Position numbers and translations under genes: made by a program
The notes under the pieces: generated by a model
Databases searched by the model: none
What the model saw: the letters and a program-made list of their open reading frames with translations, nothing else
Told to the model about the DNA's origin: nothing
NCBI GenBank assembly: GCA_963711835.1
Contig: CAVQFQ010000017.1
Coordinates: forward strand, 128,001-192,000
DNA length: 64,000 bases
Reading direction: 5' to 3'
DNA from: an uncultured delta proteobacterium
GTDB taxonomy: Bacteria; Desulfobacterota; RBG-13-43-22
Shown: piece after piece, positions 6,067 through 44,338 of the stretch
Layout of the letters: each line of letters opens with the position of its first letter
Numbering within the stretch: the stretch's first letter is position 1

Positions 6067-6371
6067 TTAAATACTAAGCAAAGATCTTTGCAATTTTTTC
6101 TAAAGTCCTGAATAAATGGTGTAGGGGGGCCCTATTTTTTAAGTTGTCCAAAGGGTGACTAAGAGCCCCTAATCCGGCCCGAATAACTAAGTTTATGTTA
6201 GAGCAGGGCATTCACCAACGCCTATTTCCAGCCTGGGTGTAGGCCTGCTGATGAAATAGGGTTCGCATTTTGGCCCGGCAAAGAAGCTTATGGCTTTGGG
6301 GTGGACAACTCAAAAAATAGGACCCCCCTACACCTGATATTTGAAAATTAGATATAAATTCCCAGAATTAA
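6067..6371. repeat. Non-coding element copy 1: core 6118-6334 bounded by 33-bp inverted repeats, inside TTAA-bounded flanks
   Basis: ggtgtaggggggccctattttttaagttgtcca (6118-6150) vs tggacaactcaaaaaataggacccccctacacc (6302-6334), 31/33; homologous to 9560-9862 and 43971-44241. Confidence 0.9.
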
Positions 6372-6463
6372 GAGTATTACAATCTATCAAATGTAAGGAA
6401 GAAAGAGTTCTTAATCAAGGAAAAAAATGATATAGTAAGCAACCTCTTTTTTGGACACCTCCA

Positions 6464-7171
6464 ATGGGCGATCTTTACGTTATACGACATGCGCAGGCCT
6501 CTTTCGGGAAGCCCGATTACGACCAGCTCTCCAGGCTCGGGTTTCGCCAGGCTTCCCTCCTGGAAGGGTATTTGTCCCATCTGGGGGTTGGGTTTGAAGT
6601 AGTCTTTTCCGGGGCTATGAAGCGCCACTTAGACACCGCCCAGCCCCTCCTGGCCTGCCTGGGACCGGATACCGACCCGGAAGCCTTGACCGTTCTATCC
6701 GAGTTCAACGAGTATGATTCGTCTTCCCTGATGCAGATCCAATTGCCCCATCTGACCCGGGAAGACCCTTCTCTGGAAAAGGACCTGGCCAATATTTACA
6801 CCGATCCCAAGGCCGTTTATCGCCTCTTAAACCGGGCCATCCTGCGCTGGATATCCGACCCGGACGTCGGCTCAGGCATTGAGACCTGGACTGAATTCAC
6901 CCAAAGGGTTCGGAAAGGCATCAATCGGGTTATCGAGGAAGCCGGGAAGGGCAAGACCATCGCCCTGGTAACCTCCGGCGGGCCGATTTCAGCCCTGCTT
7001 CAACTGGCCCTTTCCCTGTCCGACCAGGAAACCATCCATTTGGCCTGGCAACTTCGAAACGCCTCGGTTTCCATCTTTAAGTACAACCGGAAGCGCTTAA
7101 CCCTGGATTCCTTCAATTCCGTGGCCCATCTGGAAAAAGAGAAGGATCCGACTTTGATAACTTACCGCTAA
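6464..7171 (+). CDS. Histidine phosphatase (phosphoglycerate mutase-like) family protein
   Basis: LYVIRHAQASFG, FNEYD, LVTSGGPI, LRNASVS. Confidence 0.9.
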   Translation: MGDLYVIRHAQASFGKPDYDQLSRLGFRQASLLEGYLSHLGVGFEVVFSGAMKRHLDTAQPLLACLGPDTDPEALTVLSEFNEYDSSSLMQIQLPHLTREDPSLEKDLANIYTDPKAVYRLLNRAILRWISDPDVGSGIETWTEFTQRVRKGINRVIEEAGKGKTIALVTSGGPISALLQLALSLSDQETIHLAWQLRNASVSIFKYNRKRLTLDSFNSVAHLEKEKDPTLITYR

Positions 7172-7208
7172 AGACACCTATTTTTCAGTAACCGGAAAGG
7201 AGTACCCA

Positions 7209-8414
7209 ATGGATTTTGAAATATCGGACAAGATGAAAGCCGTTTTGGAGATGATGAACGAGTTCCTGGAAAAGGAGGTCATTCCTCTGGAGCCGGAATA
7301 CCTGAACCGATCCTTCGTGGGTATGCTCCCCGAACTGGAGGAAAAAAGAAGGATCGTCAAGCAGATGGAGCTCTGGGCCCCCCAGCATCCCAAGGAATAC
7401 GGGGGCATGGGTCTGGATATTATTGAATTCGGTCTGGTATCTGAGGTCCTGGGCCAATCCCCTCTCGGACACTTCGTCTTCGGGGCCCAGGCCCCGGATG
7501 CCGGCAATATCGAGATCCTGCACCTCCACGGCACGGAGGAGCAAAAAAAGACCTATTTGAAACCCCTGGTGGCAGGGGAAATCCGGAGCTGTTTTTCCAT
7601 GACCGAAGTGGAACTGGCCGGCTCCAACCCGGTGCTGCTGGCCACAACCGCGGTGAAGGACGGTGATGATTACGTCATCAACGGCCACAAGTGGTACACT
7701 TCCAGCGCCGACGGCGCCGCCTTTGCCATCGTCATGGCCGTCACCAATCCCGAGGCCTCCCCCTACTTGCGGGCCAGCATGATTATTGTCCCTACGGACA
7801 GGCCGGGTTTTAATCTGGTCCGCAACATCCCGGTCATGGGCCATCAGGGTTCCGGTTGGGCCAGCCACGGCGAGATCCTCTACCAGAACTGCCGGGTCCC
7901 CCAAAAAAACCTTCTCGGCCCCGAGGGCGCCGGCTTTGTCATTGCCCAGGAACGGTTGGGCCCCGGCCGGATCCATCACTGCATGCGCTGGATCGGCATC
8001 TGCAATCGGGCCTTTGCCCTGATGTGCTCCCGGGCCCTGAACCGCGAGATCGCCCCGGGCAAGACCCTGGCCACCCGCCAGATCATCCAGGCCTGGATCG
8101 CCGAAGGCGCGGCCGAAATTCAGGCCGCCCGCCTCATGGTCCTCCATGCCGCCTGGAAGATGCACCATCTGGGTCAGAAAGAGGCCCGGGAAGAGATTTC
8201 CCTGATCAAATTTTACACGGCCGGAGTCATGCAAAAAGTGGTGGACCGGGCCATCCAGGTCCACGGCGGTCTGGGCATGTCGGACGACACTGTCCTGGCC
8301 TTTTTCTTCCGCCATGAGAGGGCGTCCCGGATCTATGACGGGGTGGATGAAGTCCACAAGGTGACGGTGGCCCGGAGGATTTTAAGGGAATACGAGGGCA
8401 AGAAAGTTCGCTGA
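7209..8414 (+). CDS. Acyl-CoA dehydrogenase, ACAD10/11 (LvaC-like) subgroup
   Basis: APDAGNIEIL, SCFSMTE, INGHKWYTS, AQERLGPGRIHHCMR, IQVHGGLG, RIYDGVDEVH. Confidence 0.9.
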   Translation: MDFEISDKMKAVLEMMNEFLEKEVIPLEPEYLNRSFVGMLPELEEKRRIVKQMELWAPQHPKEYGGMGLDIIEFGLVSEVLGQSPLGHFVFGAQAPDAGNIEILHLHGTEEQKKTYLKPLVAGEIRSCFSMTEVELAGSNPVLLATTAVKDGDDYVINGHKWYTSSADGAAFAIVMAVTNPEASPYLRASMIIVPTDRPGFNLVRNIPVMGHQGSGWASHGEILYQNCRVPQKNLLGPEGAGFVIAQERLGPGRIHHCMRWIGICNRAFALMCSRALNREIAPGKTLATRQIIQAWIAEGAAEIQAARLMVLHAAWKMHHLGQKEAREEISLIKFYTAGVMQKVVDRAIQVHGGLGMSDDTVLAFFFRHERASRIYDGVDEVHKVTVARRILREYEGKKVR

Positions 8415-8422
8415 GGTGCCGG

Positions 8423-9490
8423 ATGGATTTTAAAGATACAGCCACGACCATACGGGCAGGGGAGGAACTGGATATCCCCAAGCTGGAGGCCTTCCTAAAA
8501 GAGGCCCTCCCTGGGCTGGAAGGCCCTCTGGTCATTAGGCAATTTCCCAAGGGCTATTCCAACTTGACCTACCTGCTCCATTTCGACAACCGCGAAGTGG
8601 TGCTGCGCCGGCCCCCTATCGGGACCAAAGCCAAGACCGCCCATGACATGAAGCGGGAATACCGGATCCTCACGGCCCTGCGGCCGGTATTCCCCTATTG
8701 TCCGGAACCCCTGGTTTATACTGAAGATGAAGCCGTCATGGGCTGTCCCTTCTACCTCATGGAGCGCCTGAACGGCATCATCCTGCGCAAAGAACTGCCC
8801 CCGGACCTGGTGTTCACCCCGGATCAGGCCCGGCGGCTTTTTGAAAGATTCCTGGATGTGCTGGTGGAACTTCATTCCATCGACTATAAAAAAATCGGCC
8901 TGGAGAATTTCGGCAAGCCGGAAGGGTATGTGCGCCGGCAGGTCGAGGGCTGGAGCAATCGCTACCGGGCGGCCCGGACCCCGGACGCCCCGGATTTTGA
9001 AACCGTCATGGCCTGGATCGCCGAAAAGATGCCCCCTGATACGGACCGGCCGACCATCGTCCATAACGATTACCGTCTGGACAACATGGTCCTGGATGAA
9101 AAGGACCCTTTCAAAATCATCGGGGTCCTGGACTGGGAAATGGCCACTATCGGAGACCCTCTCATGGATCTGGGCAATACCCTGGCCTATTGGGTCGAAA
9201 AGGACGATCCGCCGGAGAGTCATCTGCTGCGGAACATGCCTACCCACATTGAGGGGGCCCTGACGCGGAAGGAAGTGGTGGCGCGCTATGCCCAAAAAAC
9301 CGGCCGATCCCTGACTCAGGTTGACTTTTACCACTGCTTCGGGATCTTTCGGTTGGCCGTTATCGCTCAGCAGATCTACTACCGCTTTTACCACGGCCAG
9401 ACCAAGGACGCGCGTTTTCAGGCTTTAATCCACGGGGTTCGGATCCTGGAACAGGCCGCCCTCAGGATCCTGGAACAAGCCCAACCCTGA
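8423..9490 (+). CDS. APH-family phosphotransferase, ACAD10/11 kinase (LvaA-like)
   Basis: QFPKGYSNLTY, VLRRPP, AHDMKREY, IVHNDYRLDN, VLDWEMATIGDPLMDLG. Confidence 0.9.
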   Translation: MDFKDTATTIRAGEELDIPKLEAFLKEALPGLEGPLVIRQFPKGYSNLTYLLHFDNREVVLRRPPIGTKAKTAHDMKREYRILTALRPVFPYCPEPLVYTEDEAVMGCPFYLMERLNGIILRKELPPDLVFTPDQARRLFERFLDVLVELHSIDYKKIGLENFGKPEGYVRRQVEGWSNRYRAARTPDAPDFETVMAWIAEKMPPDTDRPTIVHNDYRLDNMVLDEKDPFKIIGVLDWEMATIGDPLMDLGNTLAYWVEKDDPPESHLLRNMPTHIEGALTRKEVVARYAQKTGRSLTQVDFYHCFGIFRLAVIAQQIYYRFYHGQTKDARFQALIHGVRILEQAALRILEQAQP

Positions 9491-9559
9491 ACCCTTGTTT
9501 TTGAAAACCTAAAGGAGAACTGAAATTTCTTGACCCTTGACAGGGACAGGAAAATCAGG

Positions 9560-9862
9560 TTAAAACCCAAGCAAAGATATCCGAAATTTTTTCCCAAGTC
9601 TTGAAGGAATGGTGTTGGGGGGTCCTATTTTTTAAGTTGTCCACCCCAAAGCCAGGAGCTTCTTTGCCGGGTCAAAATCGGATAGTGTTTTGGCAGCAGG
9701 CCTACACCCAAGCTGGAAATGGGCTGGGGTGTAGGCCCTGCTCTCAAATGATCTTAGCTATTCGGGCCGGATTGGGGGCTCTTAGTCACCTTTTGGACAA
9801 CTTAAAAAATAGGACCCCCCAACACCGGATATTGGAACGTTAGAGATATATTCTCAGATTAA
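9560..9862. repeat. Non-coding element copy 2: core 9611-9826 with perfect 33-bp inverted repeats; interior inverted relative to copy 1
   Basis: ggtgttggggggtcctattttttaagttgtcca (9611-9643) / tggacaacttaaaaaataggaccccccaacacc (9794-9826); interior matches the reverse complement of 6151-6301, flanks match copy 1 directly. Confidence 0.9.
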
Positions 9863-9930
9863 AAAATGTAAAAATCTGATTGGGTTGGATTATGTCCGAT
9901 CTTAATCACGATTCTATAAGGAGGATTTTT

Positions 9931-13402: not shown

Positions 13403-13597
13403 ATGAGCCGTAGGGTGACCATCAACGAGGAAGAGTGTATCGGCTGTGGAACTTGTTCGGAGCTTTGTCCGGAAGTCTTTCAGATGAACGAAGAAAAAGA
13501 AAAGGCCGAGGTGATCAAACCGGAAGGCGGGGCGTTCGATTGCATTACCGAAGCTATGGAGGGTTGTCCGGTTTCTTGTATTCACTGGGAGGAATAA
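13403..13597 (+). CDS. Monocluster [4Fe-4S]/[3Fe-4S] ferredoxin (copy 1)
   Basis: CIGCGTCSELCPEVF...CPVSCIHWEE. Confidence 0.95.
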   Translation: MSRRVTINEEECIGCGTCSELCPEVFQMNEEKEKAEVIKPEGGAFDCITEAMEGCPVSCIHWEE

Positions 13598-14708: not shown

Positions 14709-14897
14709 ATGAAAGTTTATCTTGTGGAAGAGGAATGTATCGGCTGTGAAAGCTGTTCGGAGCTCTGCCCGGAGGTTTTTCAGATGAACGAGGAAAAAGA
14801 AAAGGCTGAGGTGATCATGCCCGAAGGGGGACCGACGGAATGCATTAACGAGGCCATTGAAACCTGTCCAGTCTCCTGCATCCATTGGGAGGAATAA
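14709..14897 (+). CDS. Monocluster ferredoxin (copy 2)
   Basis: MKVYLVEEECIGCESCSELCPEVF...CPVSCIHWEE; close paralogue of 13403-13597. Confidence 0.95.
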   Translation: MKVYLVEEECIGCESCSELCPEVFQMNEEKEKAEVIMPEGGPTECINEAIETCPVSCIHWEE

Positions 14898-17131: not shown

Positions 17132-17290
17132 GTTCGTGTCCTTTCGGTTGCTTCAATTGAATGTTATACAACCAGAAAGATATTAACATATGATCATAAA
17201 GGGTTCACTCATTAAAAGGCACTTGTTAAGAGAAAAAGGATTTCTGGTTTTTTGTATTGACAGCGAGAAGAACCTTAGTGATTTTTACTT

Positions 17291-17364
17291 AAGGGGAACC
17301 GACGGAATGCATTAACGAGGCCATTGAAACCTGTCCAGTGTCCTGCATCCATTGGGGAGAATAA
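17291..17364 (+). pseudogene. 3' fragment of ferredoxin (direct repeat of 14824-14897)
   Basis: 70/74 nt identical to the 3' end of ferredoxin copy 2, including the stop codon. Confidence 0.9.
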
Positions 17365-18465: not shown

Positions 18466-18590
18466 AAATTCGAAATCCGAAACAAATTCAAATGATCAAA
18501 TTTAAAAATCGAAACGTTTTTGTTTTGATCATTTAGGTTTTGGACCTTCGTACTTGTTTCGGATTTCGTGCTTCGTATTTCGAATTTATA
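18466..18590. repeat. Heptad-periodic palindromic intergenic repeat (copy A)
   Basis: aaattcgaaatccgaaaca...tgtttcggatttcgtgcttcgtatttcgaattt; close copy at 40363-40471; preceded by (gatrctg)3 at 18396-18417. Confidence 0.8.
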
Positions 18591-18633
18591 GGTCCTCATG
18601 TTCAAAGGCTAACGAGATAAATTCTCAGATTAA

Positions 18634-37396: not shown

Positions 37397-38497
37397 AAAG
37401 CGGGACGCTCTTTAATAATTTAATTGACATTGTAGCCTGATGATATTAATAAAGAAATATGCCTAGAACAGCACGACTTGATGCTCCCGGCGTTCTGCAC
37501 CATGTCATAATTCGGGGAATAGAACGCAGGAGGATATTCCGTAACGATAAAGATCGTGAGGATTTTATTGAACGGCTTGAGACTCAATGTACTGAAGCGC
37601 AGACAACCTGTTATGCGTGGGCGTTCATGTCTAATCACGCCCATTTTCTTTTTCGTACTGGAACGGCGCCATTGTCCAAACTCATGAGCCGTCTGCTTAC
37701 GGGGTATGTTATCGGTTTTAACCGCCGACACAAACGCCGTGGTCAATTATTTCAGAACCGGTACAAATCTATAATCTGTCAGGAAGATGCGTACCTTAAA
37801 GAATTGGTCCGGTATATTCATTTGAATCCTATTCGTGCGGGAATAATTACTGGTTTGGAGGAATTAAAAAGCTATGACTATTGCGGTCATAGTGCTCTAA
37901 TCGGCACAAAGAAAAGGGAATGGCAAGACACGGATTATGTGCTCGCCTATTTCGGGAAAAGGAAAACTCAAGCGCGGAAAGATTATGAATCATACGTTAA
38001 TGAAGGACATCAACAAGGTCGAAGGAGAGAATTAACCGGAGGGGGACTGATCCGGAGTCTTGGCGGCTGGACCGAGGTAAAAAGAGAACGTTTGAAGGGG
38101 CGGGATCATGTTATGAGCGACGAACGAATCTTGGGTGATTCGGATTTTGTCGACTTAATCATCTCACAATCCGAGGAACAATTCGAACGGAGACATAAAC
38201 TAAAACGGCAAGGGTTTGATCTGGATCGTATTGCTGAGAGAGTGGCTGAAGTCTTAAACATGGACAGGGATGAAGTCTTATCAAAGGGGCGGCAGAACAG
38301 AAAAGTAAAAGCAAGAAGTATTCTGTGTTTTTGGGCTGCAAGGGAATTAGGCATGTCCCTTACAGCGCTAGCCAGGATTTTAGGAATGAGTATTGCTGGA
38401 GTGGGGTTTGCCGTGGAAAGGGGAGAGCTCATAGCCAAAAATGGCAATTTTAATCTGATAAACTGACTTATTAAGTTACTAAAGAGCGTCCCGCTTT
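37397..38497 (+). mobile_element. Inverted-repeat-bounded unit carrying a RAYT-like transposase
   Basis: aaagcgggacgctctttaataatttaat (37397-37424) vs the reverse complement of 38470-38497, 26/28; lower GC than flanks. Confidence 0.75.
37459..38466 (+). CDS. HUH Y1 transposase (REP-associated tyrosine transposase-like) with C-terminal HTH
   Basis: MPRTARLDAPG.LHHVIIRG, AWAFMSNHAHFL (HUH), GQLFQNRYKS, LVRYIHLNP (catalytic Tyr). Confidence 0.9.
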   Translation: MPRTARLDAPGVLHHVIIRGIERRRIFRNDKDREDFIERLETQCTEAQTTCYAWAFMSNHAHFLFRTGTAPLSKLMSRLLTGYVIGFNRRHKRRGQLFQNRYKSIICQEDAYLKELVRYIHLNPIRAGIITGLEELKSYDYCGHSALIGTKKREWQDTDYVLAYFGKRKTQARKDYESYVNEGHQQGRRRELTGGGLIRSLGGWTEVKRERLKGRDHVMSDERILGDSDFVDLIISQSEEQFERRHKLKRQGFDLDRIAERVAEVLNMDRDEVLSKGRQNRKVKARSILCFWAARELGMSLTALARILGMSIAGVGFAVERGELIAKNGNFNLIN

Positions 38498-40362: not shown

Positions 40363-40471
40363 CAAATTCGAATGATCGAATTTCGAAATCCGAAACGTTT
40401 TTGTTTTGATCATTTGGATTTTGAATCTTCGGGCTTGTTTCGGATTTCGTGCTTCGAATTTCGGATTTATA
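40363..40471. repeat. Heptad-periodic palindromic intergenic repeat (copy B)
   Basis: Aligns with 18483-18590 (shared gaaacgtttttgttttgatcattt and cttgtttcggatttcgtgcttcg). Confidence 0.8.
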
Positions 40472-40474
40472 GAC

Positions 40475-43902: not shown

Positions 43903-43931
43903 AAAAGATTTTTTTTCTAAAAATAGAGTTT

Positions 43932-44296
43932 GTCCCAAAGTTACGTGATTTTTAAGCCATCCATTCATAGAGGGCTTCAGGGGTCTTGATTTCAAGGTTG
44001 TCCGAAAGGGTATCCGTAGCCCCAAACTGGGATCCACTCCGCAGGAGTGGGACTGAGCATTGTTTTGGATGCGAAGAACCCGGCCAGAATTTCTAAGTTG
44101 GTTGGGAGCCGGGCATTCACCTAAGACGATAAATCGCCTTGGTGTTGGCCTGTTTCAAAATCCCATTATAAACTTCCTGCCCGGGTTCAGGCTGTTGGCG
44201 TTTTGGCGGACAATCCTTGAAATCAAGACCCCTGAAGCCCTTTGGTAATATTTAAGAGGCTACCCCTTCGGTTTGAGAATTACGTAACTTTGGGAC
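43932..44296. repeat. Non-coding element copy 3: nested inverted repeats (outer MITE-like 27 bp, inner 34-35 bp) around a structured core
   Basis: Outer gtcccaaagttacgt.. 43932-43958 / 44270-44296 (23/27); inner 43971-44004 / 44207-44241 (one bulge); core shares ccggcc.gaat..ctaagtt, gagc.gggcattcacc and ggtgt.ggcctg with copy 1. Confidence 0.85.
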
Positions 44297-44338
44297 TATC
44301 CTAAAAAATAGGTTCTTCTCCCGACAACCCGGGAGAAA

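Follow-up and report, generated by a model that had tools for sequence, protein, structure and literature searches.

The subject of this analysis was a pair of repeats, E1 and E2, in a 64,000-nucleotide window of DNA from an uncultured delta proteobacterium (assembly GCA_963711835.1, contig CAVQFQ010000017.1, positions 128,001 to 192,000; G000:C17:128001-192000 in our notation, G000 being the host assembly). Each repeat consisted of two fixed flanks around a hairpin-rich core bounded by 33-bp inverted repeats (IRs). An initial annotation of the stretch had taken the pair for a phase-variable switch. We suggest instead, with a probability of roughly 70%, that the repeats carry no gene, are mobile, and derive from a 1.8-kb insertion sequence (IS), that the unannotated ~538-aa protein of this IS likely serves them as the transposase in trans, and that the hairpin has been flipped repeatedly, likely by template switching. 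The switch idea is probably wrong, but the repeat led to a large family of mobile elements, for which it supplied the ends, the target, and a candidate enzyme.

Ends, empty sites, and mobility of the repeats

As the initial annotation had stated, the left flanks of E1 and E2 aligned ungapped in the same orientation (39/51 identities), the right flanks were also co-linear (37/51), the 33-bp arms were present in both copies, and the ~150-bp cores lay in opposite orientations, inverted through the IRs. When E1 and E2 were aligned directly, only the flanks and arms matched. The cores matched solely as reverse complements, and positions 6111-6341 aligned over their full length to the reverse complement of 9604-9833. 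Both copies folded much more stably than shuffled sequences did (E1, z = -5.8; E2, z = -9.4).

The ends required revision. Each element had been described as starting and ending in TTAA; the end profile and the empty sites placed the ends at CT(A) instead (Table 1). Specifically, in a profile of 51 strong left ends, conservation began at CTAA (C in 47, T in 41, A in 44, and A in 48 of the 51), and this motif was preceded by an AAAnn target. The right ends of the family, the CT-ended type that is called S1 below, terminated in AAT-CT-A. The two S1 ends were unlike each other, and their common part was only CT(A).

At the E1 locus, a contig of run X3 omitted positions 6074-6383, with CTA fitting on either side of the joint (the short side comprised 23 letters). 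At the E2 locus, a 2407-bp contig of run X6 omitted exactly 309 bp, which corresponds to the 311-bp element less one CT. Nine orthologous loci were found in metagenomes and five were compared; three of them (L024, L026, and L027) alone reached a site. In L027, which was 97% identical over 2.7 kb, E2 was absent, and another family copy was present at 9509-9511, a site that is empty in the window. Precise empty sites in related strains, as expected for a non-autonomous IS, were found at both loci and, together with the copy at a new site, indicated that the S1 unit is mobile and inserts at AAAnn-CT-A. The S1 element is thus dispersed and mobile; its description as a dispersed repeated element was borne out by presence and absence among strains at both loci. 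In L026, a 95%-identical orthologue, the intergenic region occupied by E1 held a different palindromic repeat (L026:3788-4001).

The features of both copies are collected in Table 1. Genes neighboring E1 and E2 included an electron transfer flavoprotein (ETF) gene, a histidine phosphatase gene, an acyl-CoA dehydrogenase gene, an APH-family phosphotransferase gene, and a rubrerythrin-family gene.

Table 1. Repeat features in the window (ORF, open reading frame)
Feature	Position	Strand	Evidence or remark
Copy 1 (E1), 312 bp, putative non-autonomous element, CT at both ends	6074..6385	+	End profile, X3 contig
E1 left end (CTAAnCAAAGAT..TTGAAATTTT) and spacer	6074..6117	+	20/24 identity with L134 left end
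E1 IR arm 1	6118..6150	+	31/33 versus arm 2
E1 invertible hairpin-rich core, orientation F	6151..6301	+	Reverse-complement alignment to E2, folding
E1 IR arm 2	6302..6334	-	31/33 versus arm 1
E1 right end (..GATAAATTC.CAGA..AAT-CT)	6335..6385	+	Histidine-phosphatase gene 79 bp downstream
Empty AAAnn-CTA target site	9509..9511	+	Filled by other family copy in L027 (97% identical); matching joint in run X1
Copy 2 (E2), 311 bp, putative non-autonomous element	9567..9877	+	Missing from L027 and X6 contig
E2 IR arm 1	9611..9643	+	33/33 versus arm 2
E2 invertible core, orientation R	9644..9793	-	Reverse-complement alignment to E1, folding
E2 IR arm 2	9794..9826	-	33/33 versus arm 1
E2 right end	9827..9877	+	Rubrerythrin-family ORF (from first ATG) 15 bp downstream
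Third copy of core family, shell S2 (has terminal inverted repeats; subfamily shows 8-bp target duplications)	43926..44301	.	

One hairpin core in several shells and two orientations

The initial annotation had noticed two elements. Both were real, but a third core lay in the window, and a profile search of G000 detected 129 core A-ends and 93 B-ends. G000 is a draft assembly (89% complete, 6.4% contamination) in which some family copies appeared twice with the same flanks (C17/C27, C1/C21, and C5/C24), so a few of the counts include duplicated assembly. A matrix scan of G000 yielded 70 left and 54 right ends; the reversed genome gave 6 and 1, respectively. Left and right ends could be paired in 37 cases; 11 of the pairs were coreless and retained a short palindrome with T or A at its center. 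Outside the host, E1 was matched in 12 of the 20 further genomes from the host's family, all belonging to one genus, and in 0 of 40 genomes from the other families of the phylum. No Rfam family matched the repeat at its gathering score; the closest, Plant_SRP, scored 28.5 against a threshold of 105 bits.

The core occurred in five kinds of shell, to which 109 of the 129 cores were assigned; the other 20 were truncated or ambiguous and were left out. The numbers of cores in orientations F and R were 8 and 12 in S1, 32 and 10 in S2, 24 and 3 in S3, 14 and 3 in S4, and 3 and 0 in S5, respectively. Both orientations were therefore seen in four of the five kinds, under four different arm sequences, and the arm sequence varied with the type of shell, not with the core. 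Target duplications of 8 bp (at most one mismatch) were found for 26 of 36 S2 copies and 19 of 24 S3 copies (shuffled mean, 1.7), and the S4 shell had TA-like ends. CT-type ends were present in 5 of 89 S2 to S5 copies, and 5 of 42 S2 copies were nested within a CT-ended shell. The hairpin appears to be a passenger that rides in unrelated shells as well as in S1.

Other palindromes were seen in the same setting. In some G000 copies (e.g., C5:124389-124645, C10:7020-7306, and C1:3-321), GC palindromes of 14 to 16 bp (CCCGCC..GGCGGG, CCGCCGCGGCGG) stood in for part of the core or interrupted it, at fixed points, and the same palindromes were found in other repeats and behind IS110 genes. An unrelated, AT-rich hairpin repeat had two copies in the window (18471-18591 and 40379-40472); a CT-family right end near 18608, after the first of these copies, provided an example of different cargo.

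The history of the flips was examined with 22 S1 copies, 21 from G000 plus the one from L027. The two arms differed at 3.3 positions within a locus and at 6.7 positions between loci, and none of 10,000 permutations gave a value as low. On the core tree, orientation was random: nine changes were counted versus a shuffled mean of 7.5, and 481 of 500 shuffles were as low. Well-supported branches alone forced at least four changes, and the sister of the E1 core (on C18 of G000, 96.7% identical) was in orientation R, opposite to E1. The orientation changes and the opposite-facing sister indicated that flips recur faster than the sequence diverges. Thus, the core has been flipped repeatedly, and the flips were accompanied by homogenization of the arms and by loss of the core. 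Mapping of crossovers from arm variants favored no consistent side, and no crossover point is claimed.

Polymerase template switching yields both arm homogenization and spacer inversion (PMC8604942). In a single-stranded form of the element, the 33-bp arms would pair, and a double template switch would follow that could invert the core, copy one arm onto the other, or delete the core between GGTCC and GGACC. We consider it probable that arm pairing in a single strand and a double template switch lie behind the inversion, the arm copying, and the core deletion. The flip is likely to be a by-product of DNA copying rather than the work of a gene switch or a regulated invertase, and template switching fit the observations better than phase variation did.

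A 1.8-kb element with the same ends and its protein

The 24-nt left end was present, without mismatch, in 72 loci, and the genomes carried the labels Deltaproteobacteria, Nitrospinia, Bacteroidetes, Ignavibacteriales, Acidobacteria, Binatia, and Verrucomicrobiales, along with one archaeon. Fifty-eight of these loci had enough downstream DNA, and a right end was located within 520 bp in 29 of them (terminal motif in 27; opposite-strand control, 5). The cargo between the shared ends had a folding z below -2 in 22 of 27 cases tested, and the cargo hairpins were mutually unrelated among the matches listed. In L050 and L115, the left end was followed by the start of an ORF of the ~538-aa family, and L131 had a near-identical left end.

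The initial annotation had proposed a search for a longer, autonomous copy, and such copies were found in elements of the L134 type, which carry the ORF and share the ends, as expected if S1 derives from an autonomous IS. L134 itself, from a genome (G019) of the same family as the host, measured 1850 bp and carried an ORF of 539 aa that was intact. At its left end, 23 of 24 positions agreed with the host consensus, and its right end (GATAAATCCTTAGA-N7-TGTAAGAATCTA) had the same pattern as the host's and was one base shorter. Similar right ends were located 3' of the ORF in L136, L146, L124, and L151. Genome G063 contained three ORF-bearing copies of 1790 bp that were 99.8 to 100% identical and had CTAG at both ends, and one of these copies lay next to a derivative without a gene, in which a hairpin was enclosed by the same ends. 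Genome G020 contained five near-identical copies that started with CTAAC. The defined ends and the intact element open the way to a direct transposition test.

Autonomous elements also had variable hairpins in the stretch from the left end to the start codon (L134:1313-1500, L151, and the L135 group). A distant member of the protein family (515 aa) was present in three 1.74-kb copies in genome G016 (L138, L141, and L143), the ends of which did not fit the CT(A) pattern. Viral contigs had no match to the left end, the right end, or the ORF. Among other candidates for the parent of the CT shell, the Y1/TIRYT, IS110, tyrosine recombinase, and serine recombinase genes of the host were not seen with S1 ends, nor were S1 ends seen at three loci with four-helix-bundle genes that were inspected by eye.

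The protein family comprised 1,311 proteins, and its profile matched 7,972 clusters at an E value of ≤0.001 and 940 at 1e-30. The ORF was present in 5 of the 21 genomes of the host's family. Broader searches detected it in 3 of 401 genomes from the host's phylum with a cutoff of 1e-30, in 3 of 301 genomes from another phylum with a cutoff of 1e-60, and in 18 plasmid records. No family in Pfam, NCBIfam, or PHROGs covered the protein, and only weak winged-helix matches were obtained (19 family proteins were included in the Pfam-type scan). A sequence search of the PDB returned nothing under an E value of 0.18, and the nearest clusters in the ESM Atlas were annotated as "hypothetical protein." The family thus comprises thousands of "hypothetical" clusters and has no family model. 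A fold search matched a C-terminal winged helix at residues 384 to 498 (Z, 11.6; root mean square deviation, 2.3; 92 aligned residues). Conserved motifs were HxYFY, NGH, QxE, YxK, and RxE, with the conserved residues D20-R21, E113, Q251-x-E253, Y328-x-K330, and R336-x-E338. Y328, R336, and E338 were invariant in the 27 most diverse rows of the alignment, and YxK-LRxE was near-invariant.

The ~538-aa protein is likely to be the transposase of the 1.8-kb element, and strand transfer by a tyrosine is our best inference for its mechanism. The protein would bind the two unlike ends via its winged helix, the conserved tyrosine would nick at CT, and transfer of a single strand would move the unit, leaving one CT at each end. 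A CT/AA nick is known from pT181-type origins. The searched passages of PMC6499999, PMC9371924, and PMC7563843 did not contain it. The Rep_trans (PF02486)/MOB_T proteins have the motifs N', I, II, III (YxKxxE), and IV (W/LxRxE) (PMC5714925, PMC6499999), and the YxK followed by LRxE of the partner protein, together with its conserved acidic residues, resembled motifs III and IV. In contrast to Rep_trans proteins, the partner had no PF02486 match, and just five residues separated its YxK from LRxE; members known from that group serve plasmid or phage replication or the transfer of integrative and conjugative elements rather than being the sole gene of an IS. The best profile match, which was not significant, paired LRxE with motif IV. 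Rolling-circle chemistry of the Rep_trans kind has, in our estimate, slightly less than an even chance of being correct.

Comparison with known systems and alternative explanations

By analogy, S1 would work like a non-autonomous derivative of an IS that lacks terminal inverted repeats (TIRs). Its likeness to IS91-type rolling-circle elements (PMC5714925) and to IS200/IS605 (PMC6006769) consisted of two unlike ends, the lack of TIRs of the unit, a short fixed target, internal hairpins, and a conserved tyrosine in the partner protein. In contrast to these elements, S1 had CT at both ends and exchangeable cargo hairpins, and its ~538-aa partner had no match to Y1_Tnp or any other Pfam family except the weak winged helix. 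As for HUH elements generally (IS200/IS605, IS91, and RAYT/TIRYT), the partner had no Y1/Y2 match, and its alignment contained no conserved H-u-H triad. Elements of the IS110 family have a CT core. S1 resembled that family in its lack of TIRs and in the CT found at either end as well as in the empty site; it differed in its loose target (AAAnn-CT-A) and in its partner, which was not a DEDD recombinase (no PF01548 or PF02371 match among the 19 family proteins scanned), and the two IS110 matches of the host lacked S1 ends. [quoted passage not shown] TIRs with a target duplication at the unit ends, as in a classical MITE of the DDE kind, were absent from S1 and present in S2 and S3, which were ordinary TIR elements with 8-bp duplications. 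In contrast to the known repeats, the CT ends of S1 were asymmetric and belonged with another protein family, and one invertible core was found across unrelated shells.

It is possible, although we hold it only tentatively, that these elements constitute an undescribed and very large class of prokaryotic IS, in which a 540-aa, non-HUH, non-DDE tyrosine strand-transferase (Rep_trans-like, rolling-circle) would insert at AAAnn-CT-A, the derivatives would carry palindromes across phyla, and single-stranded passage would randomize the orientation of the hairpin in a flip-flop manner. If true, the new transposase chemistry would widen the known set (DDE, DEDD, HUH, serine, and tyrosine), and the carrier behavior would provide one route for the spread of unrelated intergenic palindromes in sediment and groundwater bacteria. 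The literature searched yielded no account of this protein family, nor of a MITE whose core flips, with ISfinder, most subscription papers, and supplements lying outside the search.

Several results weighed against the derivation from the 1.8-kb element and against flipping by template switching. The ~538-aa ORF was not found in the host assembly, which is 89% complete, so the partner protein was deduced from relatives, and the ends were unrecognizable at the ORF loci of the G016 group, L127, L148, L152, L153, and L154. The structure model had a mean pLDDT (a per-residue confidence score) of 51, with the catalytic region under 50, and its only match was to the winged helix; when profiles were compared with three Rep_trans proteins, the probability was 0.3%, which was not significant. 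In the case of the flips, the spacer inversions described in PMC8604942 were of 2 to 5 bp in yeast genes, far shorter than the 150-bp core, and S3 and S4 were strongly skewed to one orientation. A small inner hairpin loop was inverted in none of the 22 aligned cores, which indicated that not every IR flips. Finally, the frame GGGGTC..TTGTCC was common to all arm types, and a dedicated enzyme could recognize it.

Invertons such as fimS, hin, and the Bacteroides capsular polysaccharide (CPS) promoters are IR-bounded segments near gene starts that occur in both orientations between fixed flanks. The S1 core was like them in all of these respects, its two orientations being seen across loci between co-linear flanks, but it had no promoter consensus and no linked invertase, existed in >100 dispersed, mobile copies, and was frequently lost. 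If a trans-acting recombinase inverted the core where it stands, locus by locus, and thereby switched the neighboring gene, one could account for the random orientation on the core tree and for the 18 of 33 elements that were within 120 bp of a gene start, and the genome does contain one full-length tyrosine recombinase. It is harder to account for the right end: in 26 of the 33 paired copies, it was this fixed end that looked toward the start of a gene on the same strand, with the core in any orientation (P = 0.0013; the counts rest on crude ORF calls). Neither core had a sigma-70-type site or a terminator (the scan covered the sigma-70 type, with other sigma factors outside it), and the sole sigma-70 hit was in the fixed right end of E1, at chance level. 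Moreover, the core was missing from 11 of 37 paired shells, whole elements were missing at the same loci in related strains, and flips were seen with four different sequences of the arms. The unique flank of E2 was linked to the opposite core end in contigs of X5 and X3, runs from other strains, but these contigs had low depth (3.8 and 4.7) and ran across a 33-bp repeat without mismatches, and the joints may be artifacts of the assembly graph. RNA runs X23 and X24 gave short contigs over the repeat, of a kind unable to show transcription. The profile search agreed with the initial annotation that the window contains no serine or tyrosine recombinase (no PF00239 or PF00589 match); in the whole of G000 (89% complete), PF00239 had 0 matches and PF00589 had 7, one of them full length. 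The position near gene starts therefore survived from the proposal of a promoter cassette, whereas the lack of a promoter consensus in the core, the fixed right end that faces the gene, and the core losses spoke against it, and we regard such a switch as unlikely. For inverton screens, the case is a caution that IR-bounded segments with two orientations can arise without a regulatory role.

Only a little less improbable is a reading in which the core itself moves: a Y1 enzyme of the TIRYT type would insert it as a small independent unit, in one orientation or the other, at a palindromic site (GGGG-W-CCCC, as in the coreless form). TIRYT repeats share GGGG[AT][CG]A[CG] (PMC3733652, PMC6006769), and the arms contain GGGGTC, although they then read YT and so agree with the eight-position consensus only up to position six. 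The genome had 12 Y1 matches, several of them within TIRs that start with GGGGTC or GGGGAC and one of them in the window. Such a unit could explain the core in five kinds of shell and the coreless forms with T or A at the center, but short forms also arise from central deletion of an inverted dimer (PMC6006769), the arm sequence tracked the shell type and not the core, and locus-specific changes were present in both arms, which independent insertion does not explain. An artifact of assembly at the hairpin is the least credible alternative. The E2 arms are identical over 33 bp, and the draft has 6.4% contamination, but both orientations were seen across dozens of loci, many of which have arms imperfect enough for an assembly graph to resolve, and also in an independent assembly (L027).

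Two further features of the window were recorded. A TIRYT-type element at 37397-38497 contained a gene with Y1_Tnp and Bac_DnaA_C matches (37459-38460) inside 28-bp TIRs. In addition, three related short gene segments, with the direct repeats D2/D3, were located at 13427-13597, 14727-14897, and 17278-17364, and they appeared ferredoxin-like when the sequence was read.

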